44,809 nucleotides of DNA from Synergistaceae bacterium (GTDB taxonomy: Bacteria > Synergistota > Synergistia > Synergistales > Aminobacteriaceae): assembly GCA_017450825.1 (NCBI GenBank), contig JAFSSV010000044.1, forward strand, positions 1 to 44,809. Reading direction: 5' to 3'. The notes below the pieces were generated by a model. That model did no database searches. It was given only the letters and a program-made list of their open reading frames with translations, and was not told where the DNA came from. Positions within the stretch are counted from its first letter, which is position 1, and each line of letters opens with the position of its first letter. This document shows, in pieces, positions 2,313 through 43,307 of this stretch. A program made the position numbers and the translations under genes.

Positions 2313-2332
<20 letters not shown>
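662..2332 (-). CDS. ilvD: Dihydroxy-acid dehydratase
   Basis: 556 aa. It shows the typical IlvD N-terminus ([22 protein letters not shown]), the Fe-S cluster region ([25 protein letters not shown]) and the C-terminal [22 protein letters not shown]. Confidence 0.95.
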
Positions 2333-3346
<1,014 letters not shown>

Positions 3347-3400: not shown

Positions 3401-3665
3401 CTTCCCCACCCCTTGGCCCTCTTGTGGAAAAATAACCCCCTCGCCAGCAAGCTGGCCCTCTCCCCCTTCACAGGGGGCGCAAGGATTTTTTCAAGATACT
3501 CTATTCCCTTTACACCTTGCCTCCCCTGAAAGGGGAGGTGGTGAGCGAAGCGAACCGGAGGGGTTAATTTTTAAAAAGGGGAGGTGCCTGAACGAAGCGA
3601 AGGCGGAGGGGTTGTAGTTAGAAGAAAAAGGGGAGGGCCTGAAAGGAGGCCGGAGGGGGTTAGTT
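3401..3665. repeat. GC-rich mosaic hairpin repeat, locus A (between the pbpC 3' end and the ilvC 5' end)
   Basis: A chain of C-run/loop/G-run hairpins, for example CCCCCT-tcac-AGGGGG at 3462-3477 and CCTCCCC-tgaaa-GGGGAGG at 3520-3538. Three degenerate tandem units of form GGGGAGGTG..GAACGAAGCGAA..CGGAGGGGTT lie at about 3528-3565, 3572-3613 and 3623-3662. Modules are shared with loci B, C and D. Confidence 0.9.
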
Positions 3666-3676
3666 AAAAAAGGTCT

Positions 3677-5851
3677 TCAAAATAATTTTTGTACTTGAGT
3701 TCTTCCCGGCGTAAAAACTTTCACGTCAACCTTGACGCTTCGTCCGGTGGTATCGGCGGCGCTCACAACGTGTTCACCGTCAGGAATGTTATAAAAAAAA
3801 TTTTTGTCCGGCAATGACGAGCCTATGAAATTTCCGTCCAGCCACCACCACACGCGCTCGGCTGCTCCTTCGGTCTTGAGGGGAATTTTTCTTTCAGTGT
3901 CGAACGGTGCCGCAAAATATGACGCGCCCGGGATAGGCGACACTATGCTTAACACAGGGCCTTCACGTTTTAGTCCTTTGGGAAGATTTATATTAACTTG
4001 GCCGGATTTCATGACGTGCATATCACATGGAAAAGTTTTTGTTACGCCGGCTATAGCCCATTCGTTTTTAATGCTTGGACATAAAGCCGTAGGAGGCTTG
4101 CCGGAAAGCGAACAGACCGGACGCAAAATTAATCCTTCGGGCTTCTCGTACCATGTTGAATTAGGAGAAAGGACGCGCAAAATTTTTACTGCAACAGGAG
4201 CCGCCGCTCTTGCTCCTACGAGTCCTTCCCATGAAGTTCCGTCAGGCTTGCCCGCCCACACTACGACAGTGTAATCAGGAGTCCATGCCGCCGCCCATGC
4301 GTCACGCAATCCGTAAGAAGTCCCGGTCTTTAAAGCTATCCGCCATTGACTCCCAAGAGTCCCGCGGGCAAACAATGAAAGCTCACCGTTATATTTCAAA
4401 ATGTCACTGACAAGCCAACAAGCCTCCGGACTAGCAAGCCTTTCACCTGGAATAAAATTCAAATCGCTTGACAATAAACTCAAAGGCCTATGAAGTCCCT
4501 GGGAAGCTAACATAGTAAAAGCTTCAAGTTCTTCAAGCAAAGTTACATCACAGCCGCCAAGTATTAAACTGTCGCCGTAATAAATCGCATTCTGTGATAA
4601 ATGCTTCAGGCCTGTTTGACGCATGAGCGATAAAATTTTCCCGTTGCCTGTCGAACGCAGGACTCTAACCGCAGGAGCGTTCAGACTTTCTGAAAGAGCT
4701 ACACGGGCGCTCACAGCTCCGCGATATTTGAGATCAAAATTTCTAGGAGCGCGGCCGGAAAAAGCCATCGAAGTATCAGCTAAAAGAGTCGAAGGCGTTA
4801 ATTCTCCGTTATCAATAGCGCAAAGATACGCGAAGGGCTTTAGCGTTGAACCGGGCGATCTCAAAGCAAGACCGCAGTCAACCCAATTTTTATTAGCATA
4901 ACTGAATCGCGCATTGCCAACCCATGCTGTGAGGCTTGCGGTTTTATTGTCAACAACTCCGGCCGCAAGCGTGACATCTTCGGGAAAATTATTTAAAGAT
5001 TGTTTCAGGATTGCTTCAAGCTTAGTTTGAGCTTCAAGATTTAAGCTTGTATTAAATGAAGAGTTTATATTTTGACTCAAGACAAGCTCCGTAAAATGAT
5101 AAGCCCTTCGAGGGAGTTCAAATTTTCTTCGCGGGAGATCTTCAAGGCGGGCGCGTCTGGCTTCGTCATGAGAAAAAATTTTTTTCCGCTCCATTAAATT
5201 TATTATATTGTTGCGGCGCTTTCTTGCTGCTTCGGGGCGGGTGTCCGGTCTGTAAAGAGTTGGGCCTTTGAGCATTCCGATTAATAAACAGGCTTCGCCC
5301 GGAGAAATTTGTGACGCTGACTTCCCAAAATAAACAAGGGACGCTGCTTGAACGCCCCTGATATTTCCCCCGAAGGGAGCAAGATTTAAATAAGCCTCTA
5401 AAATTTCCTGCTTGCTTAAAATTTTTTCGAGCTTCGAGGCCATTAAGAACTCTTGAATTTTTGTCGCGATATTTCTTTTTCTGCCTCTTGGCTCTGAAAT
5501 TGACATGCGAATGACTTGGCTTGTAATTGTCGAAGCTCCGCTGACTCTTCGCAAGCGCGTTATATCTTGAAAGATTGCCCGGCCAAGCGCAAGGAAATCA
5601 ATTCCGGAATGCCTCCAGAATCGTCCGTCCTCTGCTCCGATTGCAACGAGCGGAAGCCATTTGCCCATATCGTCAAGCCTTATAGGGATTTGCCATTCAG
5701 ACGAGGGCGACAGCTTAACATGAAATAATTTTCCGTTTACGTCATAAAAAGCCTGCGAGCCGTTAATATTAATTGAAGGACTTTCAGTGAGATATAACGC
5801 GCCTTGAAAAATTCCAAAGGTTAGCAAAAATATTATTAAGATTTTTTTCAT
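3677..5851 (-). CDS. pbpC: Penicillin-binding protein 1C (bifunctional GT51 transglycosylase / transpeptidase)
   Basis: 724 aa. GT51 motifs are EDGRFWRHSGID and GASTITSQV. Transpeptidase motifs are STLKP (SxxK), SLN (SxN) and KTGTS. A C-terminal PBP1C-type beta domain and an N-terminal membrane anchor are present. Confidence 0.9.
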   Translation of the reverse strand: MKKILIIFLLTFGIFQGALYLTESPSININGSQAFYDVNGKLFHVKLSPSSEWQIPIRLDDMGKWLPLVAIGAEDGRFWRHSGIDFLALGRAIFQDITRLRRVSGASTITSQVIRMSISEPRGRKRNIATKIQEFLMASKLEKILSKQEILEAYLNLAPFGGNIRGVQAASLVYFGKSASQISPGEACLLIGMLKGPTLYRPDTRPEAARKRRNNIINLMERKKIFSHDEARRARLEDLPRRKFELPRRAYHFTELVLSQNINSSFNTSLNLEAQTKLEAILKQSLNNFPEDVTLAAGVVDNKTASLTAWVGNARFSYANKNWVDCGLALRSPGSTLKPFAYLCAIDNGELTPSTLLADTSMAFSGRAPRNFDLKYRGAVSARVALSESLNAPAVRVLRSTGNGKILSLMRQTGLKHLSQNAIYYGDSLILGGCDVTLLEELEAFTMLASQGLHRPLSLLSSDLNFIPGERLASPEACWLVSDILKYNGELSLFARGTLGSQWRIALKTGTSYGLRDAWAAAWTPDYTVVVWAGKPDGTSWEGLVGARAAAPVAVKILRVLSPNSTWYEKPEGLILRPVCSLSGKPPTALCPSIKNEWAIAGVTKTFPCDMHVMKSGQVNINLPKGLKREGPVLSIVSPIPGASYFAAPFDTERKIPLKTEGAAERVWWWLDGNFIGSSLPDKNFFYNIPDGEHVVSAADTTGRSVKVDVKVFTPGRTQVQKLF

Positions 5852-5859
5852 TTTTTTTA

Positions 5860-6100
5860 ACCAACCCCCTCCGCCTTCACTTCGTTCAGGTACCTCCCCT
5901 TTTTAAAAATTAACCCCTCCGGTTCGCTTCGCTCACCACCTCCCCTTTCAGGAGAGGCAAGAGTGTAAAGGGAATAGAGTATCTTGAAGAACTCTCTCGT
6001 CCTCCCTGAAAGGGGGGATGTCAGCTTGCTGACAGGGGGGTTGCTTTCCAAGAGGGCCAGCTTGCGGCGAGGGGGTTATATTAAGCTGGGGTGTTCGGTT
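5860..6100. repeat. GC-rich mosaic hairpin repeat, locus B; an inverted copy of locus A, immediately upstream of pbpC
   Basis: The reverse complement of 5863-5988 aligns to 3490-3613 with about 5 differences in about 125 nt. The reverse complement of 6051-6079 aligns to 3432-3460. Extra hairpins are inserted at 5989-6050. Confidence 0.9.
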
Positions 6101-6120
6101 AAGGTTGTTAATCTAGAAAG

Positions 6121-7758
6121 CTACACATTACTTTTAATAATATCCAGCGTATAGCCTGCTATATTGTTGCTGTGATCTCCAATTCGTTCGAGATTGCTAA
6201 GCAGCGAGATAAAGTTCACGCCCTTCTCCGGATCGCATTCGCCGCGGTTAAGGCGATCTATGTGAGCTTTGCGGTAAGTTCTTTCTTGATTGTCAATTTT
6301 CTTTTCAAGATCCCTGATAACCTTCCAAGCTTCGGAAGAATTTTCATCGTTAAGAGATTTCATTGAAGTATCAATAGAAAGAGTCGTCGTATCGAACATG
6401 TCTTTTAATTCGTTGATAGCGTCTTCGGATAAATAATTATCCATGAGGTCGGCGCGTTCGATTAAATTTTCTGCACGGTCGCCGATTCGTTCGAGATCTA
6501 ACGAGGCGTTCACGTAGCAGCCCAAGACAGTCGAAACTTCGTCCGAGACTCCGCGCTGCCAGATTTCAGACGAGTAGCCCGCAATAGCTTCAGTGATTTT
6601 ATTAACGCTTTGCTCGTAGTTGTCGAATTTCTTTCGGCGCTCTTCAAGCTTTGACGAGTCGTAGCTGAACAGAGTCTCACGGACTAACGCGAACATGTCA
6701 TGAATAATCCGGCCCATGTGCATTAATTCATCTTTGACCGCCGCAACGGCCGAAGCACTTGAAACAGAAATTAAATTCAAGTCCAGATACATAACTTCTT
6801 CGAGTTTATCTTCAGGGCTTAACGGGATAAGCCTTGAAATTAATTTCGCAAGCAATCCAACGAACGGGAAAAATATTACGGTGTTTAACAAATTAAAAAT
6901 CGTGTGAGCGTTGGCTATCTGTCTTCCGATATCGGGACTGCTCCATAAAATTATTTGCTTGTATAACGGGAAAGCCAGCAGGAATATCACCGTGCCTATT
7001 AAATTAAATAACACGTGAGCAGTAGCAGCTTGTTTGGCCGGACGGGTTGCGCCCATAGATACGACAATAGCAGTTAGAGTCGTTCCTATGTTGTCGCCGA
7101 GAATTATCGGGACAGCCGCGTCGAGTCCTATCAAGCCCTGTGAAGCTACAGCCATTGTTAAGCCGATTGTCGCGGCGCTTGACTGAATCAAAATCGTTAA
7201 GACCATTCCGGCTATGACTCCTGTTATAGGGTTCTGGCTCAAGATCAATAACATATCTTTATGCCGTGAGATTATGTGAGTGGCGCTTGACATTGTCTGC
7301 ATTCCAAGGAAGAGAAGACCGAGGCCGACAATGCCGCTTGAAAGGTAAGTGATTTGTTTTTTCTTTGCGAAGATTGAAAGGAATACACCAAAGAAAACTA
7401 ACGGTAAGGCGAAGGCATCAATTTTAAAGGCAATGATTTGGGCTGTAACTGTTGTTCCTATGTTTGCTCCCATTATGATCCCGATCGCTTGATTAAGCGA
7501 CAACAAGCCGGAATTCACGAAGCTTACTGTCATAACCGTTGTGCCTGTACTGGACTGAATGAGAACCGTAACGAGAATTCCTACGAAGATCCCGCGAAGA
7601 GGAGTCTTGGTGAGATCGCCGATTAATTTTCTCATTCTGTCCCCGGCTATGAACTGTAACGCCTCACTCATAAGCTTTATTCCGTACAGGAACAGGGCAA
7701 CGCCGCCGGCTATGTTAAAGAACGTCTTAATGTCCAAAATAAAATTTCCTCCGTACAA
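6121..7758 (-). CDS. Na/Pi cotransporter family protein with C-terminal PhoU-like repeats
   Basis: 545 aa. It has a polytopic N-terminal half with duplicated QSSTGTT / QSSAATI motifs typical of NptA/YjbB-type Na/Pi cotransporters. The C-terminal half carries ERIGDRAEN and ERIGDHSNN PhoU-like motifs. Confidence 0.85.
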   Translation of the reverse strand: MYGGNFILDIKTFFNIAGGVALFLYGIKLMSEALQFIAGDRMRKLIGDLTKTPLRGIFVGILVTVLIQSSTGTTVMTVSFVNSGLLSLNQAIGIIMGANIGTTVTAQIIAFKIDAFALPLVFFGVFLSIFAKKKQITYLSSGIVGLGLLFLGMQTMSSATHIISRHKDMLLILSQNPITGVIAGMVLTILIQSSAATIGLTMAVASQGLIGLDAAVPIILGDNIGTTLTAIVVSMGATRPAKQAATAHVLFNLIGTVIFLLAFPLYKQIILWSSPDIGRQIANAHTIFNLLNTVIFFPFVGLLAKLISRLIPLSPEDKLEEVMYLDLNLISVSSASAVAAVKDELMHMGRIIHDMFALVRETLFSYDSSKLEERRKKFDNYEQSVNKITEAIAGYSSEIWQRGVSDEVSTVLGCYVNASLDLERIGDRAENLIERADLMDNYLSEDAINELKDMFDTTTLSIDTSMKSLNDENSSEAWKVIRDLEKKIDNQERTYRKAHIDRLNRGECDPEKGVNFISLLSNLERIGDHSNNIAGYTLDIIKSNV

Positions 7759-7810
7759 ATTTAAAAATTTTTAAAAAGTATATCAAAGCACTTTCAGAAT
7801 TCATAATTCC

Positions 7811-7840
7811 TTCACATTGATAAGAAGATTGTTTTATAAT
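7811..7840 (+). promoter_or_regulatory. Candidate sigma70-type promoter for the RND efflux operon
   Basis: TTCACA at 7811-7816, an 18-nt spacer, then TATAAT at 7835-7840. If this promoter is used, the track start at 7817 cannot be translated, which favours the ATG at 7883. Confidence 0.4.
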
Positions 7841-7882
7841 CCTAAAAAAATTTATATTCAAAGGAGCTTATTTATATTTCAA

Positions 7883-9034
7883 ATGAAACACTTTGTTAAA
7901 ATTTTAATCGGCGCGCTGATTATTGCGGGCGTATGTTACGGCCTCAATACCTTGCGCGAAAAACACCAGCCCGAGCCAGAGCCGGAAATAATCCGCCCGG
8001 TAAGAGTCATAACGCTCACCGGCGGTTCAGACTCAATGACGCGTCACTACTTCGGAAAAATTCAGGGCGGCAAACGCGCTGATCTTTCTTTCAGAGTCTC
8101 CGGAACGTTAAACAAAATTAACGTCGAAAAAGGAGCAGCCGTTAAGACAGGCGACCTCTTAGCTACGTTAGACCCCCGCGACTTCAACACAAGAATTTCT
8201 CAAGCTTCAAGCTCGCTGTCACAAGCTCAGGCTCAATATAAAAACGCTCAAGCCGATTTCAAACGCTACGAGAATTTATACAAGCAAAAAGTTATTGCCC
8301 GGGCACAGTACGACACTTACAAGACTCAACTTGATGTCACACGAAGCGCCGTAGGAGCAGCGCAGGCGAATTTAAAATCTCTTCGGGATGCTTTAAAAGA
8401 TACAGAGCTTCGCGCTCCCTTCGATGGAATTATCGCTGATAGGACTGTAGAAAATTTTCAGGACGTTACGGCCAAGCAGACTATTTTTAGCTTGCAGGAT
8501 CTTTCAGCATTAGAGATAGTCTTCAACATTCCGGATAATGATATTCTTCTTGCTCCCTTGCCGAGAATGAAGAGCGTTAAAGATTTACAGAAAAGCCAAG
8601 AGCTTTTTAATATTGTTGCCCGTTTCGAGGCAATGCCCGATAAAACTTTCCCTTTGACAGTCAAAGAAGTTGCGACACAGGCCACAGCCGCCAATACTTA
8701 CCCGGTTACAGCGACAATGCCTCAGCTTCAAGATATTCGCGCCCTTCCAGGCATGGCCGTAACGGTTGAAGTTTATATGGAGGGTGGAGAAAAGGACGAA
8801 GGTTCTCCAAAATATTTAGTCCCTGCTACTTCAATCTTGAACGAGAAAAATAAAAATTTCGTCTGGAGATTTAACAGCGGCAAAGCTGAAAAAATTTCTG
8901 TCGAAGTCGGAGGCATTAAAGACAGCGGCATGTTAGAAATTCAAAGCCCCGTCCTTCATAACGGAGATAAAGTCATTACGGCCGGCGTATATTTTTTGCG
9001 TGAAGGTCAGAAAGTCCGCTTGCCCGAGGAGTGA
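7883..9034 (+). CDS. Efflux RND transporter periplasmic adaptor subunit (HlyD/MFP family)
   Basis: The track ORF starts at 7817. The internal ATG at 7883 gives a typical adaptor signal-anchor (MKHFVKILIGALIIAGVCYG) and is preceded by AAGGAG at 7861-7866. The protein has lipoyl-like, coiled-coil (AQAQYKNAQADFKRYENLYKQ) and beta-barrel segments. It lies directly upstream of the RND pump. Confidence 0.85.
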   Translation: MKHFVKILIGALIIAGVCYGLNTLREKHQPEPEPEIIRPVRVITLTGGSDSMTRHYFGKIQGGKRADLSFRVSGTLNKINVEKGAAVKTGDLLATLDPRDFNTRISQASSSLSQAQAQYKNAQADFKRYENLYKQKVIARAQYDTYKTQLDVTRSAVGAAQANLKSLRDALKDTELRAPFDGIIADRTVENFQDVTAKQTIFSLQDLSALEIVFNIPDNDILLAPLPRMKSVKDLQKSQELFNIVARFEAMPDKTFPLTVKEVATQATAANTYPVTATMPQLQDIRALPGMAVTVEVYMEGGEKDEGSPKYLVPATSILNEKNKNFVWRFNSGKAEKISVEVGGIKDSGMLEIQSPVLHNGDKVITAGVYFLREGQKVRLPEE

Positions 9035-12094: not shown

Positions 12095-12276
12095 AATAAC
12101 CCTCACCACCGCAAGCGTTTTTTGAGTAAGGAATCCCCCCGCCGCAAGCGGCCCTCCCCCCTTAAAAGGGGGGCTCTAGGATATTACTAACAAAGCCTCC
12201 CCTTGGGGAGGTGGTGAACGAAGTGAACCGGAGGGGGTTGCTTTCCAACGAGCCATGAAGTGGCGAGGGGGTTATT
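12095..12276. repeat. GC-rich mosaic hairpin repeat, locus C (between convergent genes), with MITE-like imperfect terminal inverted repeats
   Basis: The ends are AATAACCCTCACCACC (12095-12110) and GTGGCGAGGGGGTTATT (12260-12276, reverse complement AATAACCCCCTCGCCAC). Hairpins include GCCGC-aa-GCGGC and CCCCCCT-taaa-AGGGGGG. The core module CCTCCCCTTGGGGAGGTGGTGAACGAAGTGAACCGGAGGGGGTT is shared with loci A, B and D. Confidence 0.85.
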
Positions 12277-12300: not shown

Positions 12301-12918
12301 TTAATAAAACCCTATGACAGCAGTCACGGATTTTATTGGGCTCATCATCATTGAGCGGGTCACCGAGAGGCCGATTTGTTTAGCCGCATTAAGAAGGCTA
12401 ATGATCTCCTCGGTGACTTCCATTTTTAAATCGCCGTAGCCCGGACTGAAACGCGACGTTAAAAATTCTCCGGCTTTGAGGCCCGGGACGATTTGATTTT
12501 TAATATATTCGTTTAAGAAGTCATCGACTTGAACAGACGCGGCCGAGTCCAGTGCGAGTCCTTCGAGCATGTTTTTCTGTTGAGCTAAAGAAATTTGCCT
12601 GTCAACTTCGTGCCCGAGTGTCGCGGCTATTAAGATACATTTATCAGCCCGGGCCGTTAAGCGCGCAATATCTTTGCTGAAGATACTAGCGCCTTCGATT
12701 TCAATTCCGCCGTCAAAATGAATCAGCTTGAACTCCCTCCAGATACAACGGGGAGTCATAAAGCCCTCAAGCCTTTGAAAAGCGTTGTCTATAATTTGAA
12801 TAAGCTCGTGATCGTTTTCAGCGTCACGAGCTTTCATGTATCGCAAGGCGTTAATTATCAGCCTTTTCTCTGCGGGCATATCTCTTAGTGTAAAGCACTG
12901 AACGAATCCCCGCGTCAA
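12301..12918 (-). CDS. Stand-alone vitamin-B12-dependent methionine synthase activation-domain protein
   Basis: 205 aa. The C-terminal RFSPGYGDL...IGLSVTRSMMMSPIKSVTAVIGF matches the MetH AdoMet-binding (reactivation) domain signature. It lies downstream of metF, as in Thermotoga and Clostridia. The track start overlaps metF by 68 nt, so an internal Met at 12879 or 12840 may be the true start. Confidence 0.75.
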   Translation of the reverse strand: MTRGFVQCFTLRDMPAEKRLIINALRYMKARDAENDHELIQIIDNAFQRLEGFMTPRCIWREFKLIHFDGGIEIEGASIFSKDIARLTARADKCILIAATLGHEVDRQISLAQQKNMLEGLALDSAASVQVDDFLNEYIKNQIVPGLKAGEFLTSRFSPGYGDLKMEVTEEIISLLNAAKQIGLSVTRSMMMSPIKSVTAVIGFY

Positions 12919-13744
12919 TACGCCGGACAGTATCAGCTTGATTCATTGTGTAAAGGTGAACGCCGTCAACGTCACGCGCTAATAAATCTATTAACTGTTC
13001 AGTAGCGTAAGCAATACCGGCTTCTTTAATCGCGGCTTGATTATGTCCGTAAGCATTAACGAAGCGGCGGACTCTTTCCGGGACTGAAGCTCCGCACATC
13101 TCAACGACCTTTGAAATCTGTGACGCGGCTGTTATCGGCATGACCCCGGCTATAATAGGTTGAGTTATGCCGATTGCGCGAGCCTCTTCACGCCATTGAC
13201 AAAAAATATCGTTGTCAAAAAATAATTGCGAGATAAGAGCCTTGACTCCAAGATCGCATTTTTCTTTTAAGTGCAGCAAGTCTTCTTTTATTGACTTGGC
13301 CTCGGGGTGTTTCTCCGGGTAACAGGCCGCGAATACGTCGAAGTCATTTCCGTATTCTTTTTTAATGAATGCGATTAATTCTGAAGCGTAATGAAAATCT
13401 CCAAGATCGGACTCGTCTTTGAGATCGCCGCGCAAAGCTAAAATATTTTTTACTCCGTTAGCTTTTAATTGATTCAGAATGCTTCTAATATTTTCGCGCG
13501 TTGTTCCTACGCAGGTAAGATGAGCTACGCCGCAGACGTTGTATTTATTTTGAATTCCTGAAGTAATTTCTACGGTGTTGTCACGGCTTGAACCTCCAGC
13601 TCCGTAAGTCACGCTGATTAAATCCGGCGTGAAGCTCACTAAACTATCAATTACTGCATAAGTTCCAGCGGTGCTGGCGTTGCCCTTGGGCGGGAAGATT
13701 TCAAACGTGTAACTGGGCGCGGGCCTTTCAAAAAATCCTTCCAT
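12851..13744 (-). CDS. metF: 5,10-methylenetetrahydrofolate reductase
   Basis: 297 aa. Typical MetF features are present: the N-terminal FEIFPPKG, SVTYGAGGS, HLTC and LALRGD. Confidence 0.9.
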   Translation of the reverse strand: MEGFFERPAPSYTFEIFPPKGNASTAGTYAVIDSLVSFTPDLISVTYGAGGSSRDNTVEITSGIQNKYNVCGVAHLTCVGTTRENIRSILNQLKANGVKNILALRGDLKDESDLGDFHYASELIAFIKKEYGNDFDVFAACYPEKHPEAKSIKEDLLHLKEKCDLGVKALISQLFFDNDIFCQWREEARAIGITQPIIAGVMPITAASQISKVVEMCGASVPERVRRFVNAYGHNQAAIKEAGIAYATEQLIDLLARDVDGVHLYTMNQADTVRRIDAGIRSVLYTKRYARREKADN

Positions 13745-13774
13745 TAATAAATATCTCCTTTCAGTTTTGACTCT

Positions 13775-14659
13775 TCATTGACTCAAGAGCCATTCTCTAA
13801 GGGCCGTTATCTTATAAACATAATCGAACGAACTCATGTGTTCTGAAAAATTTTTTGAGCTGTCGATCCCTTCGGGCAAGGTTGAGCCGGCTTTGAACGT
13901 TATGAAGTTTGCGTACTGTGACGGGAAGATAAACACGCGGGGATCTTTAGCGTCGATATTTTTATAAGCTACGTAAGGGACTCCGGCCTCGTCAAAAAAT
14001 TTTATAACTTCGCTTTGACCTTTTGAAGCTTTCTCATCTCCAGCGGAAGCCGCGTAAATAAATTTCACGGTCTTCAATCCTTCAAGCTCTTTGATATTCC
14101 ACTGTCCCGACACGAACAAACAAGCCGTAAATAAATCCGGATACTTTGAAGCAAGTAATAAAAGAGTCATGCAGCCCATTGACTGTCCAGTCGCGTAAAC
14201 TCTTTTGGGATTAAGCTTATAATTTTTTATTGAGTGCCGAACGAATCGCGCTGTAAGTTCTACATAGTCCGTAGTCTTAAAACCATTGTGATCGTCAAGA
14301 ATAATTTCCGGGTAAGTCGGAACGATAACAACTGCGTCATGTTCAGTCCAGACTAAAGCTCCGTAACCTTGAGTGACAGAAAACTCCGTGGCCTTGCCTG
14401 CCGCGCTTGCGTCAGCGATAAAAAATACAACGGGAAAATTTTTTTCGGGCGAATAATTTTCAGGCAAGTAAATATCATAAGAAAGATCCAAGCCTGTCAC
14501 TTCGTCATGAAAATTTTTGACAGTGAATTTTTTTGCTGAAGTGCTGATTAAATTTTGCAGAGTCTCATCGCCTGATTTATCCGGGTGAAGCATTGCTGCT
14601 TGTGTCGAAAATGCCAAGGCCAGAACTAACGCAAGAGCAAGAAAAATTTTTAACTTCAT
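13775..14659 (-). CDS. Secreted alpha/beta-hydrolase (esterase/lipase-like)
   Basis: 294 aa. It has the signal peptide MKLKIFLALALVLALAFSTQA and a nucleophile elbow GQSMG. Its start overlaps the speD stop by 4 nt. Confidence 0.7.
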   Translation of the reverse strand: MKLKIFLALALVLALAFSTQAAMLHPDKSGDETLQNLISTSAKKFTVKNFHDEVTGLDLSYDIYLPENYSPEKNFPVVFFIADASAAGKATEFSVTQGYGALVWTEHDAVVIVPTYPEIILDDHNGFKTTDYVELTARFVRHSIKNYKLNPKRVYATGQSMGCMTLLLLASKYPDLFTACLFVSGQWNIKELEGLKTVKFIYAASAGDEKASKGQSEVIKFFDEAGVPYVAYKNIDAKDPRVFIFPSQYANFITFKAGSTLPEGIDSSKNFSEHMSSFDYVYKITALREWLLSQ

Positions 14660-15069
14660 TCTTTCTTCCCGTCGACTCGATTTTCTTCCCAGGTTATGAA
14701 CGAGTGATAGAAGACTTTATCATTATCATCAAGTCCGCGGGTTATTTCAGTTATGTGAATGTGCTTTGCCTTGACCTGTTCAAGAACGTAATCGACAGCC
14801 AGCATAGGCTCGGTATGAGCGCCGCAGGTATAAATATCCAGCGCCATATAATTTACTTCGGGCCAAGTGTGAACGGATAAATGCGACTCACTTATAACTA
14901 CAATGCCGCTGACTCCGTTGGGCGGAAATTTATTGAAGGACACGGACCAAACTTGAGCGTGAGCTCTTTTGGCAGCTTCAACAAGAATATCTTGAAGCTT
15001 AGGAACATTAGTAATTGTATCATCGCAGCCTGAAACCTCTACGATATAGTGAACGCCTTTCGGGGACAA
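14656..15069 (-). CDS. speD: S-adenosylmethionine decarboxylase proenzyme (small prokaryotic class)
   Basis: 137 aa. The self-processing site context VVISESHLSVHTWPE and DIYTCG are characteristic. The TTG start at 15069 is preceded by AGGAGGG 9 nt upstream. Confidence 0.9.
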   Translation of the reverse strand: MSPKGVHYIVEVSGCDDTITNVPKLQDILVEAAKRAHAQVWSVSFNKFPPNGVSGIVVISESHLSVHTWPEVNYMALDIYTCGAHTEPMLAVDYVLEQVKAKHIHITEITRGLDDNDKVFYHSFITWEENRVDGKKE

Positions 15070-15144: not shown

Positions 15145-15375
15145 AAGCCCCCCTTGGGGAGGTTTTAGTAATATTTTGAAATAACCTCCTCGCCAGCAAG
15201 CGGTTTTTGAGTAAGGAATCCCCCCGCCGCAAGCGGCCCTCCCCCCTTAAAAGGGGGGCTTATAGTAATGCTAATCAAGCCTCCCCTTGGGGAGGTGGTG
15301 AGCGAAGCGAACCGGAGGGGGTGAATTTTAAAGAAAGGGGAAGTGGCGCAACGAAACTAAGCGGCGGAGGGTATT
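15145..15375. repeat. GC-rich mosaic hairpin repeat, locus D (between the gmd 3' end and the speD 5' end)
   Basis: A 57-nt block at 15204-15260 is identical to 12119-12175. The block at 15277-15322 matches 12193-12238 at 44 of 46 positions. There is an extra hairpin AAGCCCCCCTTGGGGAGG at 15145-15162 and a second degenerate unit at about 15331-15373. Confidence 0.9.
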
Positions 15376-16497: not shown

Positions 16498-17862
16498 TTA
16501 ATTCTCCTTTTTTAGATTTTCTTTTAGAATCTCAGCTATTTCATTATCAAAATTCATTAAGGCGTGAGATAAGGCGGTCATGCCTTTATGGTCTCTTATA
16601 TTGAGATCGGCTCCGTTATTAATTAAGAACTTTACTATTTGAAGCTGTGTTTCCCGTCGTGAGAACGCGTAGAAAATTGAAAGGGCCAGCCACAAGCGCA
16701 CGCCTTTGGCCCTGATTGCTCCTGTTCGTATAAGAGCAGAGATTGAGAAGTCGGGTATTCTGTCTTGGCCGTTGATTGTCCACATTAAAGCCGTATAACC
16801 TTTTTCGTCTTGAATATTAGGATCTGCTCCGAATTCAAGAAGACTTTTAATGACTCCGTCCTCGCTGTCGCCGTCAATCGCGGCCAACATCAAGGGCGTT
16901 CTACCGTTGTTATCTTTTAAATTCGGGTTGCCTCCGTTAGACAGGAGCAGCCTTAAAATTTTGTTGCTTGTCAAGATTGAGAACATTATCGAAGACTTTC
17001 CGCTATAGTCAAGAAAATTAGGATCAGCTCCGGCGTTTAAAAGTATCTTGACTATATCGGGCCTGTCCATGGAGATTGCAAGATTTAAAACGTTGCTGAA
17101 GGCTCCTTCGTCAAAAAAAATTTTTTGATCTATATCTGCTCCTCTTTTTATTAAAAGCTTAATCATTTTAAGAATCTCCGGGCTGGAATTTGAGTGGAGT
17201 ATCGCAGCAGAAAGCGGCGTTTGATTTGCAAGGCATGGTTTATTTATATCTGCTCCGGCTTTGAGCAGCAAGTCCATTAACTTTAAATTATTTTCTTTTA
17301 TTGCTAAGACCATCGCCCTATCATAATCTGCTCCGGCGGCTATGAGCGCTTTGACAATACCCGGAGAAATTTTCAGCAGGCCGTCGTTGAACAACATGGA
17401 CAAATAAGTCAAAGCCGTTTCCCCTTCTTCTCCTTCCTTTGATACTATTGCGTTGACATCTGCGCCAAGCTTTATTAAAAATCTAACCATTTTTAAATTA
17501 TTAATTGTCGCAGCGTAGAAAAGAGGAGTCCGGCCTCTTTCGTCTTTGGTGTTTATTCCTATTCTTTTGGTAAGGTATTTGACCATAATTTTATCGTCAG
17601 CGTTCAGCGAGATCATATACGCAGGGAAAGGTTCAGCGCCCCTATCCAGCAAAATTTTCACCGCCTCAAGATTACCGCCCGCTACGGCCGCAATCAACGG
17701 CGTATAGTCAGCGCCGTACATATTGACTGCTTCTTCAAGGTCGTAGCCGTTATCTATAAACCATTCGATCTCTTCACTGGAGTGAGTGAAGCAGCTCCGG
17801 ACAAATTTTTCCTGCGGGGTCATTTCTTCTTCGTCTTCGTAATATTCGTCGTCGTAATACAT
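16498..17862 (-). CDS. Ankyrin-repeat protein
   Basis: 454 aa with at least 9 recognisable ANK units (for example GRTPLFYAA..NNLKMVRFLIKLGADVN and GRTPLMLAA...LLEFGADPN). The N-terminus MYYDDEYYEDEEE is acidic and there is no signal peptide. Confidence 0.85.
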   Translation of the reverse strand: MYYDDEYYEDEEEMTPQEKFVRSCFTHSSEEIEWFIDNGYDLEEAVNMYGADYTPLIAAVAGGNLEAVKILLDRGAEPFPAYMISLNADDKIMVKYLTKRIGINTKDERGRTPLFYAATINNLKMVRFLIKLGADVNAIVSKEGEEGETALTYLSMLFNDGLLKISPGIVKALIAAGADYDRAMVLAIKENNLKLMDLLLKAGADINKPCLANQTPLSAAILHSNSSPEILKMIKLLIKRGADIDQKIFFDEGAFSNVLNLAISMDRPDIVKILLNAGADPNFLDYSGKSSIMFSILTSNKILRLLLSNGGNPNLKDNNGRTPLMLAAIDGDSEDGVIKSLLEFGADPNIQDEKGYTALMWTINGQDRIPDFSISALIRTGAIRAKGVRLWLALSIFYAFSRRETQLQIVKFLINNGADLNIRDHKGMTALSHALMNFDNEIAEILKENLKKEN

Positions 17863-20558: not shown

Positions 20559-21959
20559 CTATTCAAATCTTTTAAACTCATATGCTGCGAACTGGGCGAT
20601 TAATTGCAGCGAAGCAAGCTGCGAACGATTTAAGCCGCCCGGCCCGAGCGCTATTAATCCCATGAGCGAATTATCGTCGCAGATCGGGAACACGTATTGA
20701 ATCGAAGAAGACTTCAAAATTTCTTTCCATGGACAGCCGGCAAGCCCCCAGGATTTAAATACAGCGTCGGGAGATTTTTGAGAAAGTTCGTAATAAGCTT
20801 CGCTGATTTTTTCGCTGGAGATCGGGCCGCTTGAGGAAGGCAGGAGCGTTGGATCTAAATTAACTTTGTAATGACCTGTTCGATGTTCTGAAATCGTGTA
20901 GCCTTGGCGGGATTTGTTCCAAGCGGCCAAGACGCAGTTAGACATACGGCTTTGCTCTGTGAAAATGTCAACGAGGAGTGAGAAGAATTTTATTTTGCTG
21001 TCTGCTCCGCGTAAAACTTTCAGGACGTTTGAAAGCGAAAGAACGGTGAATTCTCCCTGAGAGATATTTGCTTCGGCCTGCTTTGACTGGAGGCGCAAGT
21101 TATTTATAGCGATTGCCCTTACTGCTAAATTTCCGAGAAGCTCAAGGAAGTTCATTGTCTGATCGTCCGGAAGATTTTTCCATTTCATAAGACAGAACAA
21201 TCTGCAGTCCCCTTCGGCTACAGGCAAGACGACTTCGACGGGGGAGTCGCTCTTAGTTACGACCGGAGTCGGCGGCAAAATTTGCGAGGCGTATAAACCT
21301 TGGCGGGCGGGAATGCTGTCTGCTTTGCCGTTGAAGACCGTTAAATAATTTCCTTCGTCCTTTAAAATTGCAATGGACTCAGGGAACAAACTTTCCTGTA
21401 AAACATCGGCCAAGAACGAAGCAAAATATTGAAGGGGCATAGGCTCAAAAATTGACGCAAGAGTACTCTTTGTTGCCAGTATCATATAAGACAGGCGCGA
21501 CAATTTTTTTTCGGTGTCTGAAATTTTCTTGAAGGTCTGCCAGAGTCTTATTAACCCCGCGTAAGGTTTTAAATCTTTCACGAGTGCTTCAGGGTCGGAG
21601 GGCTTCTCTTTTAAGAGTATAAAGATTTTCCATTCCGCGCCCATAATTCTAATTACGCCGGGCCATTCTTCGGGGCCTTCGGAGAATTCAAGCTCAAAAG
21701 ATTCTTTAGCTATATTAGAAGGAAAGAGCTTTGAAATTTCGTCCTTCAGTGTCAAGCTTGACGGGACGAGCCCGGCCGCGTCTACTACGTTAAGATTTTC
21801 TGCAAAGGCTGTGGCCTCTAAGACTAATGCTTTAATGCCGCGCTCGTTTAAAAAGTCTGTAAGATTTTTCAGAGCGCCGCCTTTAATAATAAAATCAGTT
21901 TGATTATAAAGCTCGTTGATATTATTTTGGGACATGGTACTAAAAAATACCTCCGGCAA
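20559..21959 (-). CDS. Hypothetical protein with GAF-like modules and no recognisable output domain
   Basis: 466 aa. The alternative ATG at 21935 (MSQNNINELY) lies downstream of GGAGG. Two C-terminal segments of about 150 aa follow the loose GAF pattern and end in ...LIALGPGG...LIAQFAAYEFKRFE. No catalytic or DNA-binding motif was recognised. The gene is divergent from the flagellar operon. Confidence 0.4.
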   Translation of the reverse strand: MPEVFFSTMSQNNINELYNQTDFIIKGGALKNLTDFLNERGIKALVLEATAFAENLNVVDAAGLVPSSLTLKDEISKLFPSNIAKESFELEFSEGPEEWPGVIRIMGAEWKIFILLKEKPSDPEALVKDLKPYAGLIRLWQTFKKISDTEKKLSRLSYMILATKSTLASIFEPMPLQYFASFLADVLQESLFPESIAILKDEGNYLTVFNGKADSIPARQGLYASQILPPTPVVTKSDSPVEVVLPVAEGDCRLFCLMKWKNLPDDQTMNFLELLGNLAVRAIAINNLRLQSKQAEANISQGEFTVLSLSNVLKVLRGADSKIKFFSLLVDIFTEQSRMSNCVLAAWNKSRQGYTISEHRTGHYKVNLDPTLLPSSSGPISSEKISEAYYELSQKSPDAVFKSWGLAGCPWKEILKSSSIQYVFPICDDNSLMGLIALGPGGLNRSQLASLQLIAQFAAYEFKRFE

Positions 21960-27738: not shown

Positions 27739-28629
27739 TTAATTTAATAATTTATTAGCGTTCTTAAACAAGATTAAATTCTTTTCGTCTGAATTCAGAA
27801 CAGGAAGGGACAAAAATTTTTCAAGACTCTCCCCTTGAGAAGCCCACGGCGAGTCCGTCCCAAAAATCACGCGGCTTGCTCCAAAATTTTTTATGAGCTC
27901 AATAAATTTTTCAGCGCTCAATAATTTACAAGCCTCGCGAGTCTTATAATAGCCGTCGCCGTTCAGCGTGAACTCCCCTAAAGAAAATGCAGTGTCTATA
28001 AAAATTCCTTCACGGCCCGCAAAAAATCTTTCGGCTTCGTCCCAAGCCCTCCAGCCTCCCATATGAGCAAGAACGATTTTAAACTCACATTGAATCTTAT
28101 CAATAGCACAAGAAATTTTTTCCGGCATCGCGTACTCATTGCCGGGAAAGCCAATGTCAAAGCCCGCATGAATCAAAATTACAAGGCCAAGCTCAGAAGC
28201 AAACCGCAAGATTTTTATATATCTTTCATCGTCAACAGGCAAGCCCTGATAAACCGGGTGAAGCTTTATGCCTTTTATGCCGGCAGAAAAAATTCTTTCA
28301 AGTTCCGGCTCACAATCTTCAAAGGCCGGGTGCATTGCCCCGAAAGAAATTATATTTTTTGAAAGCGAATTAATTTTTATTGCGGCGTTGTTAATTCCCG
28401 GGACTTGTTCGGGCCGGGTTGCTACGGGCTGCAAAACAGAAAAACCAACGCCAGAGTCCTTCATTGATTTTTCCAGTGCGCTTAACGTTCCGTCCGTGAA
28501 GGGTCGCGTATGACTCTTGGCCTGTAATTTCTCCAGAGCAGCCGCCGCGATTTTATCCGGGAATGTATGGACGTGAAAGTCAATACAGAATTCGTTATCC
28601 AAGCCCCTCCGGCCTCCCTTAATCTCCAA
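27739..28629 (-). CDS. Amidohydrolase-2 / TIM-barrel metal-dependent hydrolase family protein
   Basis: 296 aa. It has the N-terminal metal-binding motif IDFHVHTFP, an internal HAGF and HMGG, and a terminal FGTDSPW. Confidence 0.75.
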   Translation of the reverse strand: MEIKGGRRGLDNEFCIDFHVHTFPDKIAAAALEKLQAKSHTRPFTDGTLSALEKSMKDSGVGFSVLQPVATRPEQVPGINNAAIKINSLSKNIISFGAMHPAFEDCEPELERIFSAGIKGIKLHPVYQGLPVDDERYIKILRFASELGLVILIHAGFDIGFPGNEYAMPEKISCAIDKIQCEFKIVLAHMGGWRAWDEAERFFAGREGIFIDTAFSLGEFTLNGDGYYKTREACKLLSAEKFIELIKNFGASRVIFGTDSPWASQGESLEKFLSLPVLNSDEKNLILFKNANKLLN

Positions 28630-33683: not shown

Positions 33684-35045
33684 TTATTCTGTTACAGCTG
33701 GAAGGTCGATAGATTTTACAGCCTCTTCGATTTTTTCTACGGCTGCTTTAATTTCTTCGGGTTCTTTGACCTCTGGAGTCGGCTCTGCACTCACAGGCTC
33801 TTCGGTCTTGACTTCTTCAGGCTCTTTGACTTCAGGTGTCGGCTCTGCGCTCACAGGCTCTTCAGCTTTGACCTCTTCAGATTCTTTGACTTCAGGAGTC
33901 GGTTCGGCGCTCACAGGCTCCTCGGCTTTAACTTCCTCTTTAACTTCCGGCTTAACCTCTTCGGATTTAACTTCGGGTTCGGCGCTTACTTCTGTAATAT
34001 CTTCGATTACAAACTCCGGCGCTGTATCTTTGCTTTCAGGTTCCGGGCTTGCGAATAATTCTTTGTCATTAATAACTACATTGGCTTTGGCAAGCAAAGA
34101 CTCTTGATAGTTTGAGAGTCTTGTCCGCTCTTCCTGTTGAGTTAAGACTGTACGAATATCGCTGCTTACTTCGTCATAAGGGCTTACGCTTGCGTCAACA
34201 TGACTGGTTTTCATTGCTACGCCGAAATCAGAACTTGAAAGCGTGAATACTTCGCTCGGCTTTTCAAGATCAAGCGAAGCCAATGCGCTGAATGTTCCCG
34301 TAGCGAATGCGTTTGCAGGCAAGAACACTGGCTCTCTTGTAATATCAACTGAAGCAGAAAGATCGCTTGAGGCTATTATGTCCCAGCTTTCTCCGTTGAC
34401 GAGTCGCGTTCTGAAATTTTCAGCGTCTGCACTTGTATCGAAATTGGCCAAATGAATCATAAAGCCTTCGGGTTTACTGTAGACGATATTTTTCATCGTG
34501 TCATAAAATTCTAAGGCTTTATCTTCGCTGATTTCGATTTCTCCTACGGCCATATTCATGAGCTGATCTATAGCTATTTGACGGGCAAGGCTCTTTTTAT
34601 AATCGTCTGGTCTGATTCCTGACTGTTCAAGGGCTTGATAAAATGTTTCGCGTGTCGGGAAATATGTATCGGCATAAGCTTTCATAGCCTGCTCGGCTTG
34701 AGCGTCAGAAATTTTTATGCCGTTAGCTTCGACTTCTTTATCAAGCTGTGACTCAAGGATTGCGTTATCTAAAACTGTTTTGTAAATTGCGGGCATATCA
34801 AGCGACTCAATATTTCTTGAGCTGTAATTGCTAAGATAGCTTCTAAGTCTTTGCTCAAGCTCCGAACGCATTAACGAGCGGCCGTTGATCTGCGCGACTT
34901 CGTAATCGCTCATAGTGCCGTCAGCGTTGCGCGTTGGAGTGCGCCTCGTGCCTGTTCCTTCGTACATTAAGAATGTAGACAGCAGGAAGGCAACGACGAT
35001 AATAGCCATAACCCATTTCATTTGCTTTCGCAGAAAATCCATCAT
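33684..35045 (-). CDS. SurA-N/PpiD-like membrane-anchored chaperone with an acidic tandem-repeat C-terminal tail
   Basis: 453 aa. An N-terminal TM anchor (MKWVMAIIVVAFLLSTFLMY) is followed by a SurA_N-like helical region. No clear parvulin signature was recognised by eye. The C-terminus carries three repeats of EEPVSAEPTPEVKE(S/P)EE(V/I)K. Confidence 0.65.
   Translation of the reverse strand: MMDFLRKQMKWVMAIIVVAFLLSTFLMYEGTGTRRTPTRNADGTMSDYEVAQINGRSLMRSELEQRLRSYLSNYSSRNIESLDMPAIYKTVLDNAILESQLDKEVEANGIKISDAQAEQAMKAYADTYFPTRETFYQALEQSGIRPDDYKKSLARQIAIDQLMNMAVGEIEISEDKALEFYDTMKNIVYSKPEGFMIHLANFDTSADAENFRTRLVNGESWDIIASSDLSASVDITREPVFLPANAFATGTFSALASLDLEKPSEVFTLSSSDFGVAMKTSHVDASVSPYDEVSSDIRTVLTQQEERTRLSNYQESLLAKANVVINDKELFASPEPESKDTAPEFVIEDITEVSAEPEVKSEEVKPEVKEEVKAEEPVSAEPTPEVKESEEVKAEEPVSAEPTPEVKEPEEVKTEEPVSAEPTPEVKEPEEIKAAVEKIEEAVKSIDLPAVTE
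33760..33939. repeat. 60-bp tandem repeat x3 inside the PpiD-like CDS
   Basis: The units are 33760-33819, 33820-33879 and 33880-33939, about 85-90 percent identical by eye. They are in frame and encode the 20-aa acidic Pro/Glu repeat. Confidence 0.9.
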
Positions 35046-41412: not shown

Positions 41413-42918
41413 ATGGGAGCTTTAGCACAATTAGGAGCGGCGACGCTTCGAGTCTGTGAGCCGACTTCTTTATTCTTAATGATAGCCGGTGTAGCAATCG
41501 GAATTATTTTTGGATCAATCCCCGGCCTAAGCGCCTCAATGGCTGTTGCCTTGATGCTGCCTCTTACGTTCTCAATGGGGTCTTCGCTTGGAATGAATGT
41601 ACTTGTAGCAGTTTATATCGGCGGAATTTCGGGCGGTCTTATCTCTGCAATTTTATTGAACATGCCCGGCACAGCCTCTTCAATCGCTACGACCTTCGAC
41701 GGCTATCCAATGGCCCAGAAAGGCGAAGCCATGAAAGCCCTTGGAGTCGGCATAGTCTTCTCATTCTTAGGATCTATCTTCTCATTTATAATCTTGACTT
41801 TCTTTGCGCCTATGTTGGCGGATATAGCTTTGCAGTTCGCTGCGCCCGACAACTTCGGAATTTGCTTCTTCGCTTTAACAATGGTTGCTGTATTATCCTC
41901 CGGAAATATGGTCAAGGGACTCTTGGCCGGAATGTTAGGACTTCTATTCGCGCTTGTCGGACTTGCTCCGATTGACGGTACAGCAAGATTTACTTTTGGA
42001 ATTCCTGAAATGCGCGGAGGCTTTAACACACTTACAACTTTGATAGGAATTTTCGCTGTCGCTGATATTCTAGTGAGCGCTGAAACTATTGGACAGGGAA
42101 TTAAGGCAGTCCCGGTTAAAAAAGTTTGGGGCTTCGGCTTCAGCCTTGCAGAATTCTTTAAATGGATTCCCGGAGCTATCCGCGCCGCGTTAATTGGAAC
42201 GGGCATTGGAATTTTGCCGGGCATTGGCGGTTCAACTTCGGGAATGTTATCTTACGTTACGGCGAAGAACATGTCCAAGCACCCGGAAACTTTTGGACAG
42301 GGCGAGCCTGAAGGAATCGTAGCGACTGAATGCGCGAACAACGCGACAATCGGCGGAGCTTTGATCCCGTTGTTAGTTTTGGGAATCCCCGGCGACGGAG
42401 TCACGGCTATGATGCTCGGAGGATTTTTAATTCACGGACTTAGCGCGGGGCCGTTGCTCTTCGTTAAGAATGCCGATGTAGTTTACGGAATTTTTGCGGC
42501 CTGCATGGTCTGCGCTTTGATAATGCTGATAGTCGAATGGACTTGTATAAAAGCCTTCGTTCAGGTCTTGAAAGTTCCGAAGCATGTATTATTGCCTTTG
42601 ATACTTGTACTCTGTGCCGTAGGAGCTTACGCGACTAACAACAGAATTTTTGATGTGCAGTCAATCGTAGTCTTCGGGGTAATTGGCTATCTATATCATA
42701 AATTTAAATTACCGACGACACCGTTTGTTTTGTGCTTCTTAATCGGAAGAATGACCGAAGAATATTTGCGCCGCGGCCTTATGAGATTCAAGACCTTCGG
42801 AGCATTTTTCAGCCGACCGATTTTCACGGGCTTCTTTGCGATTGCTGTTTGTGTAATTTTATGGGCAATGTACAAAGAATTTAAAGCCGCCCGCGCCGAG
42901 AAGAAAGCAGCAGCATGA
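41413..42918 (+). CDS. tctA: Tripartite tricarboxylate transporter large permease TctA family
   Basis: 501 aa, polytopic. TctA-like segments are GSIPGLSASMAVALMLPLTF and GILPGIGGSTSGMLSY. Confidence 0.88.
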   Translation: MGALAQLGAATLRVCEPTSLFLMIAGVAIGIIFGSIPGLSASMAVALMLPLTFSMGSSLGMNVLVAVYIGGISGGLISAILLNMPGTASSIATTFDGYPMAQKGEAMKALGVGIVFSFLGSIFSFIILTFFAPMLADIALQFAAPDNFGICFFALTMVAVLSSGNMVKGLLAGMLGLLFALVGLAPIDGTARFTFGIPEMRGGFNTLTTLIGIFAVADILVSAETIGQGIKAVPVKKVWGFGFSLAEFFKWIPGAIRAALIGTGIGILPGIGGSTSGMLSYVTAKNMSKHPETFGQGEPEGIVATECANNATIGGALIPLLVLGIPGDGVTAMMLGGFLIHGLSAGPLLFVKNADVVYGIFAACMVCALIMLIVEWTCIKAFVQVLKVPKHVLLPLILVLCAVGAYATNNRIFDVQSIVVFGVIGYLYHKFKLPTTPFVLCFLIGRMTEEYLRRGLMRFKTFGAFFSRPIFTGFFAIAVCVILWAMYKEFKAARAEKKAAA

Positions 42919-43307
42919 AACATAAAGTTAAACTCACTGTAATAGACAAAAAACTTTTTCCAGAACTTAAGGAAAAGTTTTGCGCCGTTCCTGACTCTGG
43001 CCCTTGCCCTTGCTATAACGTTGGAGATGAATTTATTTTTGAACGCGACGGCGACAAAGATCACTTCTGGCACATGGGGCTTGACACACTTGTTAAGACT
43101 CAAGCTGATCCTGACACAGTAGCGGGAGGCCCTAAGCTCCCGCATTGTTCAGAGGCATGGGACGCTTTTTCGCGTTATATTTACACGGGTTTACAGGGCG
43201 GTTCTATCATGAAGGGCTGGATGAAAGACGAGAACGTTATGATTACATGCTGCTCTGATGGAACACGTCCCGTAATTTTTAAGATCGAAAGAATTGATTA
43301 TGAGTAA
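42915..43307 (+). CDS. TIGR04076-family Cys-rich protein
   Basis: 130 aa. The pattern KVKLTVIDKK......C...DSGPCPCYNVGDEFIF....C.EAW.......GLQGG......W......ITCCSDGTRPVIFKIERI matches what I recall of TIGR04076. Its ATG overlaps the tctA stop (ATGA). Confidence 0.7.
   Translation: MKHKVKLTVIDKKLFPELKEKFCAVPDSGPCPCYNVGDEFIFERDGDKDHFWHMGLDTLVKTQADPDTVAGGPKLPHCSEAWDAFSRYIYTGLQGGSIMKGWMKDENVMITCCSDGTRPVIFKIERIDYE

Follow-up and report, generated by a model that had tools for sequence, protein, structure and literature searches.

The inverted repeat around pbpC in a Synergistaceae genome is a pair of hairpin-forming intergenic repeat clusters beside a resident gene

The closest known kinds of sequence to the repeats described here are REP/BIME and REPIN elements. 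Repetitive extragenic palindromic (REP) sequences and bacterial interspersed mosaic elements (BIMEs) are palindromic units of enterobacteria (Gilson; Bachellier), which we use as defined in a review (PMC3479197). REPINs are mobilised by RAYT transposases (Bertels and Rainey; PMC3116915, PMC3337134), and among their spacers no two are identical and every one forms a hairpin (PMC3337134). Here we analyse a stretch of 44,809 nucleotides from a Synergistaceae bacterium (GenBank assembly GCA_017450825.1, contig JAFSSV010000044.1, positions 1 to 44,809; hereafter the window), in which pbpC, the gene for penicillin-binding protein 1C (PBP1C), is bracketed by a long inverted repeat. We find that this inverted repeat consists of two copies, one on each side of an ordinary resident gene, of a common intergenic repeat that forms hairpins. 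Very probably, the spaces on both sides of pbpC were each colonised by a cluster of this dispersed REP/BIME- or REPIN-like repeat, and the two clusters were then locally homogenised by gene conversion.

The arms flank the pbpC open reading frame (ORF; 3677-5851, minus strand), the one 64 nt past its stop codon and the other 12 nt ahead of its ATG, as the original prediction had stated. A repeat search placed the core of the inverted repeat at 3516-3611, which matches the reverse complement of 5866-5961 over 96 nt (97% complementary), and it returned further inverted blocks at 3462-3515 and 5963-6016 (54 nt, 78%), at 3447-3461 and 6051-6065 (15 nt, 100%) and, outermost, at 3429-3445 and 6066-6082. 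The longer match reported between 3490-3613 and the reverse complement of 5863-5988 also held, with exactly 3 substitutions and 2 single-base indels in a gapped alignment. Over the whole downstream (c1) and upstream (c2) arms, 175 of 200 positions are identical, while the two complete intergenic blocks aligned with gaps share 186 identities in 216 columns; the longest exact arm-to-arm run is 61 nt (3525-3585 with 5952-5892). Since both arms are also present, at 99.8% identity, in L001, which comes from an independent metagenome assembly, the inverted repeat is not an assembly artefact. The arm match is far above chance for random sequence. The proper null for the bracketing, however, is not random sequence but the placement of four clusters of the same family among ~40 gene boundaries, and with that null at least two of the four fall next to each other by chance with a probability of ~0.28.

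Both arms are mosaics of ~35-50-nt units, each made of a CCTCCCC/GGGGAGG hairpin, a variable covarying hairpin and GGAGGGGTT. On the G-rich strand a unit reads GGGGAGG-T, a short hairpin and (C)GGAGGGG(G)TT in both arms (3532-3565, 3578-3613 and 3630-3661 on the plus strand; 5863-5899 and 5912-5945 on the minus strand), and a CCTCCCC-loop-GGGGAGG hairpin often precedes it. Oppositely oriented units with a 'GCAAGC' loop lie beyond a central long hairpin (3434-3466, 6012-6042 and 6051-6077), each cluster itself being a quasi-palindrome of tandem and opposed units around that hairpin.

The downstream arm, cluster c1 (3433-3661), is a BIME-like mosaic of one minus unit, the central long hairpin and three plus units, with covariance-model matches at 3433-3479 (minus), 3520-3566 (plus), 3575-3614 (plus) and 3627-3660 (plus). 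Its minus unit (3434-3466) belongs to the 'GCAAGC' subtype and has the reverse complement GGGGGAGAGGGCC-AGCTTGCT-GGCGAGGGGGTT. The central 'alpha' loop, TTCAAGATACTCTATTCCCTTTACAC (3490-3515), is common within the window only to the other arm. It is followed by a full plus-strand unit (3520-3565), composed of a CCTCCCC-TGAAA-GGGGAGG hairpin, a T-GGTGAGCGAAGCGAACC hairpin and then GGAGGGGTT, which received the top covariance-model score (53.7 bits, E 8e-14). A second tandem unit on the plus strand (GGGGAGGT-GCCTGAACGAAGCGAAGGC-GGAGGGGTT, 3578-3613) and a third (GGGGAGG-GCCTGAAAGGAGGCC-GGAGGGGGTT, 3630-3661), which has no equivalent in c2, complete the cluster.

Read along the pbpC sense strand, the upstream arm, cluster c2 (5863-6077), comprises two 'GCAAGC' units, the central hairpin and two G-type units, and the covariance model matched it at 5862-5902 (minus), 5911-5957 (minus) and 5998-6043 (plus). 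The two 'GCAAGC'-subtype units (6012-6042 and 6051-6077, together spanning 6012-6077) carry their G-rich strand on plus, and the central 'alpha' loop (5963-5988) is an inverted copy of 3490-3515. The full unit at 5911-5957 (minus, 52 bits) is the twin of 3520-3566. The G-type unit beside the pbpC start (5863-5899, minus) contains the GGAGG previously read as a Shine-Dalgarno sequence; the motif is indeed present, but it lies 16 nt from the ATG, is absent from the related strain L003 and is no conserved ribosome-binding site.

Extragenic copies of the repeat are not confined to the flanks of pbpC. The window holds four clusters, all of them intergenic: in addition to c1 and c2, cluster c3 (12098-12273) lies between convergent acrB-like and metH-like genes, and cluster c4 (15147-15373) forms a direct-repeat pair with it (131 of 147 positions identical). 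Nearest neighbours are mutual best matches, c1 with c2 and c3 with c4, and no cluster lies in any of the window's divergent promoter regions. The 7-mers GGGGAGG, CCTCCCC, GGAGGGG and CCCCTCC are present at ~2-5-fold over composition, almost entirely within c1-c4. A covariance model trained largely on metagenome units and run over the whole window without filters gave 16 matches at E<=1, every one within the four clusters. When six independent clusters were aligned (c1-c4, the downstream cluster of strain L004 and the cluster of L020, another Synergistaceae metagenome-assembled genome (MAG)), they shared one architecture, namely two C-oriented units, a CCCCCC/GGGGGG hairpin, a variable 20-45-nt centre, a CCTCCCC/GGGGAGG hairpin and 1-3 G-oriented units. 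The original prediction had itself conceded that an inverted pair around one gene would be expected by chance if the same modules recurred genome-wide, in random relative orientation, at hundreds of intergenic sites, and in kind they do recur, at 12098-12273, at 15147-15373 and at 120 or more metagenome loci.

Two further features of the window concern these repeats. Clusters c3 and c4 bracket a four-gene block (12301-15069) that encodes a metH-like activation domain, methylenetetrahydrofolate reductase, an esterase and S-adenosylmethionine decarboxylase. At the junction of an amidohydrolase and a sodium:solute symporter gene (28595-28620) there is a pair of boxes that lacks the hairpin, with the reverse complement AAGGGAGG-CC-GGAGGGGCTT; it was not reported by the covariance model and could be a degenerate unit or a mere ribosome-binding region.

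The inner hairpin of the unit is maintained while its sequence changes. We scanned metagenome contigs with only the two boxes fixed and a free gap of 12-24 nt between them, and units were found at 120 loci at least. The metagenome matches listed numbered 127 and between them had 86 distinct inner sequences, 93% of which fold to at least 5 bp, compared with 46% of shuffles; the loops are mainly GAA, GCA, GTA, GNRA or TTT. Pair positions 3-9, counted from the boxes, are 75-96% complementary, most of them with 4-5 pair types, whereas complementarity is 8-60% when the partner is slid. In the hairpin alignment, 87.5% of cells pair compared with 54% in shuffles, a level that 0 of 500 shuffles reached, and double changes affect 119 cells where 43 are expected. 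The unit is thus a short imperfect palindrome, with compensatory changes in its inner hairpin and a visible CCTCCCC/GGGGAGG box hairpin. In the unit hairpins of L021-L176 the pairs are almost purely Watson-Crick (G.T in 9 of 620 and A.C in 4 of 620), and the remaining contacts are asymmetric, G.A or A.G occurring in 63 of 620 and C.T or T.C in none when read on the G-rich strand. The unit is thus a DNA-type palindrome, and its asymmetric GNA/GNRA loops suggest that the G-rich single strand is the one that folds.

Two other identities for the unit were considered and rejected. It is not a mini-ORF with a Shine-Dalgarno sequence, start codon and TAA stop, since the frames are inconsistent between units and both orientations occur. 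Nor is it CRISPR-like or attC-like: its supposed spacers form self-complementary hairpins, and its boxes lack mutual complementarity.

The unit resembles REP sequences in being a 35-40-nt imperfect palindrome outside genes, and the clusters resemble BIMEs in combining units of alternating orientation with linkers and in varying from strain to strain; alternating orientation with linker motifs was seen both in the six-cluster alignment and in a 900-nt array on phage contig L176. The incidental effects of REP/BIME sequences on mRNA stability and operon polarity could apply to these clusters too. However, E. coli REPs have a conserved hairpin and a 5' GTAG, whereas in this family G-rich boxes flank a freely varying hairpin, and classical REPs are lineage-specific, whereas these boxes cross phyla. 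The variable stem is preceded by ...GGAGG-T-G-(G/T/C). Counting the first G-C pair and the frequent G.A at position 2 as unpaired, 'GTGG' can be read in 67 of 110 distinct units; without that assumption the flank reads AGGT. With REPINs the units share conserved end motifs around a copy-specific spacer that keeps its hairpin, long single-strand hairpins and a non-autonomous character. The ends of a REPIN are inverted copies of one REP, in contrast with the GGGGAGG and GGAGGGG boxes, which are not mutually complementary and pair only with the C-boxes of neighbouring units. REPINs have also been described as vertically inherited, whereas these units are found in phage contigs and in three phyla. 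No RAYT (Y1/HUH) gene is encoded in the 44.8-kb window, and no gene family recurs as a neighbour in L013-L140.

Miniature inverted-repeat transposable elements (MITEs), such as the Correia elements of Neisseria, ERIC, RUP and BOX, invite a similar comparison, and Correia hairpins are RNase III substrates. Like MITEs, the clusters are small, ORF-free, intergenic and rich in hairpins, and they would often be co-transcribed with neighbouring genes. Unlike MITEs, which are of fixed length, they are mosaics of variable unit number, and we found neither a target-site duplication nor a parent insertion sequence for them. Their ends do resemble an 11-nt inverted repeat, but comparison with strain L003 showed no duplication and an imprecise junction. 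Correia and RUP elements are both mentioned in the review cited above (PMC3479197).

The gene between the arms has an ordinary history. Its 724-residue product, identified by its ORF, Pfam, TIGR02073 and upstream synteny, has all three domains of PBP1C (Transgly, Transpeptidase and BiPBP_C in Pfam) and scores 557 bits against TIGR02073, above the equivalog cutoff of 494. Homologues at 60-75% identity all belong to Synergistaceae or Fretibacterium, a distribution that is consistent with vertical descent. Upstream of pbpC lies a gene for a Na/Pi cotransporter with PhoU domains (6121-7758, minus; Pfam), and this partner directly adjoins pbpC, with a gap of 0-34 nt, in loci L006-L012 from Synergistaceae whose PBP1C is 70-73% identical. 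The cotransporter-pbpC pair occurs in three separate lineages, and the genes downstream of pbpC vary. When ~100 kb of these relatives' loci were scanned, zero repeat units were found. Since the gene pair is conserved and these relatives are free of units, the repeats are recent arrivals, and pbpC is not the independently placed module that had been proposed from the absence of an alpha-2-macroglobulin partner; that absence is a trait of the family and no sign of relocation. Likewise, pbpC is, as claimed, the only long ORF between the arms, but it is not cargo: it is a resident gene in a conserved neighbourhood. The adjacent ilvC gene for ketol-acid reductoisomerase (2313-3331, minus) has a 1-nt deletion at ~3203 relative to the 99.8%-identical L001 and is frameshifted after residue ~43, so that it is a pseudogene unless the deletion is a sequencing error.

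Closely related strains differ in their arms. An exact-protein lookup of the window's PBP1C gave no match, and near-identical PBP1C proteins from a homologue search were used for the strain comparison instead. Strain L003 (98.5% identity) retains the downstream arm and has no upstream arm, 9 unrelated nt taking the place of window positions 5850-6120 (271 nt). In this strain the stop codon of the cotransporter gene and the ATG of pbpC overlap (L003 6052-6059, ATGTGTAG), and c2 in the window therefore splits a gene pair that is probably translationally coupled. The upstream arm of L002, L004, L005 and L141 is longer by a 61-nt unit, which forms a hairpin of its own. In L004 and L005 (95-96% identity) the downstream cluster is composed differently and shares the direction of the upstream one, with a best inverted score between the arms of 9, compared with 119 in the window. 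Strain L142 has other units and another central loop, the same 'beta' loop as in L020 from another species. The inverted repeat accordingly ranges in strength from 175/200 in the window and L001 through 66/76 in L142 to none in L004. The upstream and downstream arms thus vary in presence independently of each other among 95-99%-identical strains, and the third cluster site also differs between L003 and the window. Past the outer end of the downstream cluster, the L142 contig (2625-2730) runs into sequence other than ilvC, which reflects either a rearrangement with its breakpoint at the repeat or chimeric assembly across the repeat.

The five-way alignment of clusters bears on the origin of the near-perfect core. 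Over the stretch that runs from the pbpC stop across two units, and once more past the centre, c1 equals the downstream cluster of L142. Over ~96 nt in between (~3490-3585, approximate boundaries), comprising the spacer AATTTTTAAAAA and the 'alpha' central loop, c1 differs from L142 and equals c2. The 'alpha' loop is upstream of pbpC in every strain showing that region and downstream of it only in the window, L001 and L002. This probable gene-conversion patch is most simply read as a non-reciprocal transfer of the ~96-nt core, in this lineage, from the upstream cluster to the downstream one. A transfer of this kind would account for the 97% identity in the core and the ~78% identity outside it, and it is in keeping with the mutual best matches between neighbouring clusters.

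We therefore favour, with good confidence, a history of repeat clusters on both sides of resident pbpC that were homogenised locally by gene conversion. The unit consists of the CCTCCCC/GGGGAGG box hairpin, the short variable hairpin (mostly with GNA/GNRA loops) and the GGAGGGG(G)TT box, and clusters of it would turn over rapidly, gaining and losing units between the repeated boxes and swapping patches with one another. One such patch of ~96 nt, most likely copied from c2 into c1 by gene conversion, would have produced the near-perfect core, making the inverted repeat a by-product of repeat dynamics. The consequences for pbpC would be incidental: uncoupling from the upstream gene, stable hairpins and, if the arms are co-transcribed, a long-range RNA duplex. 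The units themselves may spread through a hairpin-specific single-strand DNA enzyme acting in trans.

Several points weigh against this history. The patch could equally reflect the import of another central loop into L142. Repeats may be collapsed or wrongly joined in metagenome assemblies, and some of the differences between strains are therefore possibly chimeras, the downstream flank of L142 being an example. The lone comparison of a filled and an empty site, that with L003, is not a clean insertion: 9 nt replace 271, and there is no target duplication. The copies counted in this species are those of the window: a specific 35-mer had 0 matches in metagenome contigs, and the source genome lies outside the GTDB representatives. 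Finally, a mobilising enzyme was found neither among the window's proteins nor among the ORFs near units in L013-L140.

A selected role for the arms in RNA was the strongest of the alternatives. If both arms lie on one pbpC RNA, they could pair over ~125-200 nt, leading to RNase III cleavage or to occluded translation and so insulating or tuning pbpC. The cotransporter gene, pbpC, ilvC and ilvD are all on the minus strand, and no terminator-like site is predicted in either arm (a promoter/terminator scan gave no signal above shuffles and none within the arms), so that one transcript could carry both arms. In the ViennaRNA minimum free energy structure of a 2.8-kb transcript there are 210 arm-to-arm pairs, and the predicted arm duplex reaches -363 kcal/mol, compared with about -101 for each arm alone. 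The complementarity claimed for the untranslated regions is therefore sound as a prediction for a shared RNA. Long-range processing stems of this form bracket rRNA genes, where they are conserved and essential for maturation, and by analogy the arm duplex would be an RNase III substrate. As in those stems, the complementary flanks of a 1.5-3-kb gene could pair within one transcript and be cleaved; in contrast with them, the complementarity around pbpC is strain-specific and is built from selfish-looking repeats. High-identity pairing is available only in the window, in L001 and probably in L002; L142 has weak pairing, L004 has none and L003, with no upstream arm, could form none, and the relatives have no arms. 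Moreover, each arm folds stably on its own and the arms are made ~2.2 kb apart, which favours local folding, and the units have no preferred orientation to genes (12 sense and 16 antisense with respect to flanking ORFs, a noisy count in which stop-to-stop ORFs in GC-rich DNA overlap 45 of 127 units; mixed in the window). Because pairing is strain-specific and single arms are stable, we consider a selected regulatory role unlikely.

Still less likely is an invertible segment, in which homologous recombination between the arms would flip pbpC relative to upstream transcription and give on/off variation. The 61-nt exact run and the 96 nt at 97% exceed the usual minimal length for RecA recombination, and the conversion patch indicates that the arms interact; a crossover between them is possible in principle and would place pbpC antisense to its operon. 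However, the orientation of pbpC relative to the cotransporter and ilvC is constant wherever unique flanks are present: it is the same relative to one or both genes in the window, L001, L003, L004 and L005, and the arm-specific outer sequence of L002, L141 and L142 is colinear. The inverted repeat is itself strain-specific, and the proteins of the 44.8-kb window include no invertase or other recombinase and no transposase. The inversion that the original prediction had anticipated thus finds no counterpart in any informative assembly. Least tenable, to the point that we give it almost no weight, is the suggestion that pbpC was captured and moved as a composite cassette between two mobile-element copies, for which only the geometry speaks (one gene bracketed by repeats whose 11-nt ends, AACCCCCTCSG, resemble terminal inverted repeats), whereas the cotransporter-pbpC adjacency is ancestral and older than the repeats, the arms contain no ORFs and occur independently of each other in strains, L003 shows no target duplication, and all the 60-75%-identical homologues come from Synergistaceae or Fretibacterium.

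As an incidental product of flanking clusters and local exchange, the whole-gene inverted repeat is of little import in itself and is a caution for scans that flag 'bracketed' genes. What the strains do provide is a clear natural series, in which units come and go, patches pass from one cluster to another and a translationally coupled gene pair can be split by a cluster. The repeat unit is a more interesting lead than the bracketing of pbpC: on scanning, several phyla and phage DNA as well proved to contain a widespread and unannotated family of such units, whose G-rich boxes are conserved and whose hairpin covaries. In a GTDB-wide scan, the 32-mer GGGGAGGTGGTGARCGAAGYGAACCGGAGGGG (window 3532-3563) was found in seven alphaproteobacterial MAGs (L013-L019, 62-66% GC) and in one goat-rumen Synergistaceae MAG, and loci L013-L020 carry additional related units in alternating orientation. 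That an identical 32-mer is common to this 44%-GC Synergistaceae genome and to 62-66%-GC alphaproteobacterial MAGs points to horizontal spread or to very strong constraint. Genes beside the metagenome units are unrelated housekeeping genes, including some for sortase and dockerin proteins, which point to Clostridia-like hosts; clustering of ORFs near units at the 128 loci L013-L140 gave no recurrent enzyme family, only housekeeping genes. Among the hosts are Synergistaceae, Alphaproteobacteria, gut bacteria that encode dockerin and sortase proteins (Clostridia-like) and at least one phage.

Units are carried by 34 viral contigs. On phage contig L176, positions 7050-8050 hold a ~900-nt array of units alone, with the terminase large subunit (5755-6945) immediately downstream; the ORFs beside the array encode phage terminase and helix-turn-helix proteins and no transposase. 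Rfam gave no match at gathering score in the window or in L013-L020, and at E<=10 only sub-threshold miRNA-like hairpins at chance level. A plasmid database queried with the alphaproteobacterial doublet returned one weak match without annotation, and a literature search by unit sequence strings and by taxon plus REP terms returned nothing relevant. That the units form an undescribed, horizontally spreading superfamily of REPIN-like elements is a tentative proposal, which we regard as possible though doubtful. If it were true, the conservation of the boxes across phyla would imply a conserved partner, either a hairpin-specific single-strand DNA enzyme or the anti-Shine-Dalgarno sequence of the ribosome (both boxes contain GGAGG), and it would be at odds with the purely lineage-specific co-evolution of REP and RAYT described so far. 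The known range of REP-like elements would then extend beyond Proteobacteria, and the view that they are inherited purely vertically would be called into question.

Elsewhere in the window, a gene for a SurA-like chaperone (33684-35045, minus) contains three tandem copies of a 60-nt repeat (33753-33935, 84% matches), which encodes an acidic repeat of 20 residues. ORFs at 20559-21959 (466 residues) and 42915-43307 (130 residues) have no Pfam match. Beside a GDP-mannose dehydratase gene, positions 16498-17862 encode a 454-residue protein that consists almost wholly of ankyrin repeats, an unusual feature for the chromosome of a free-living bacterium.

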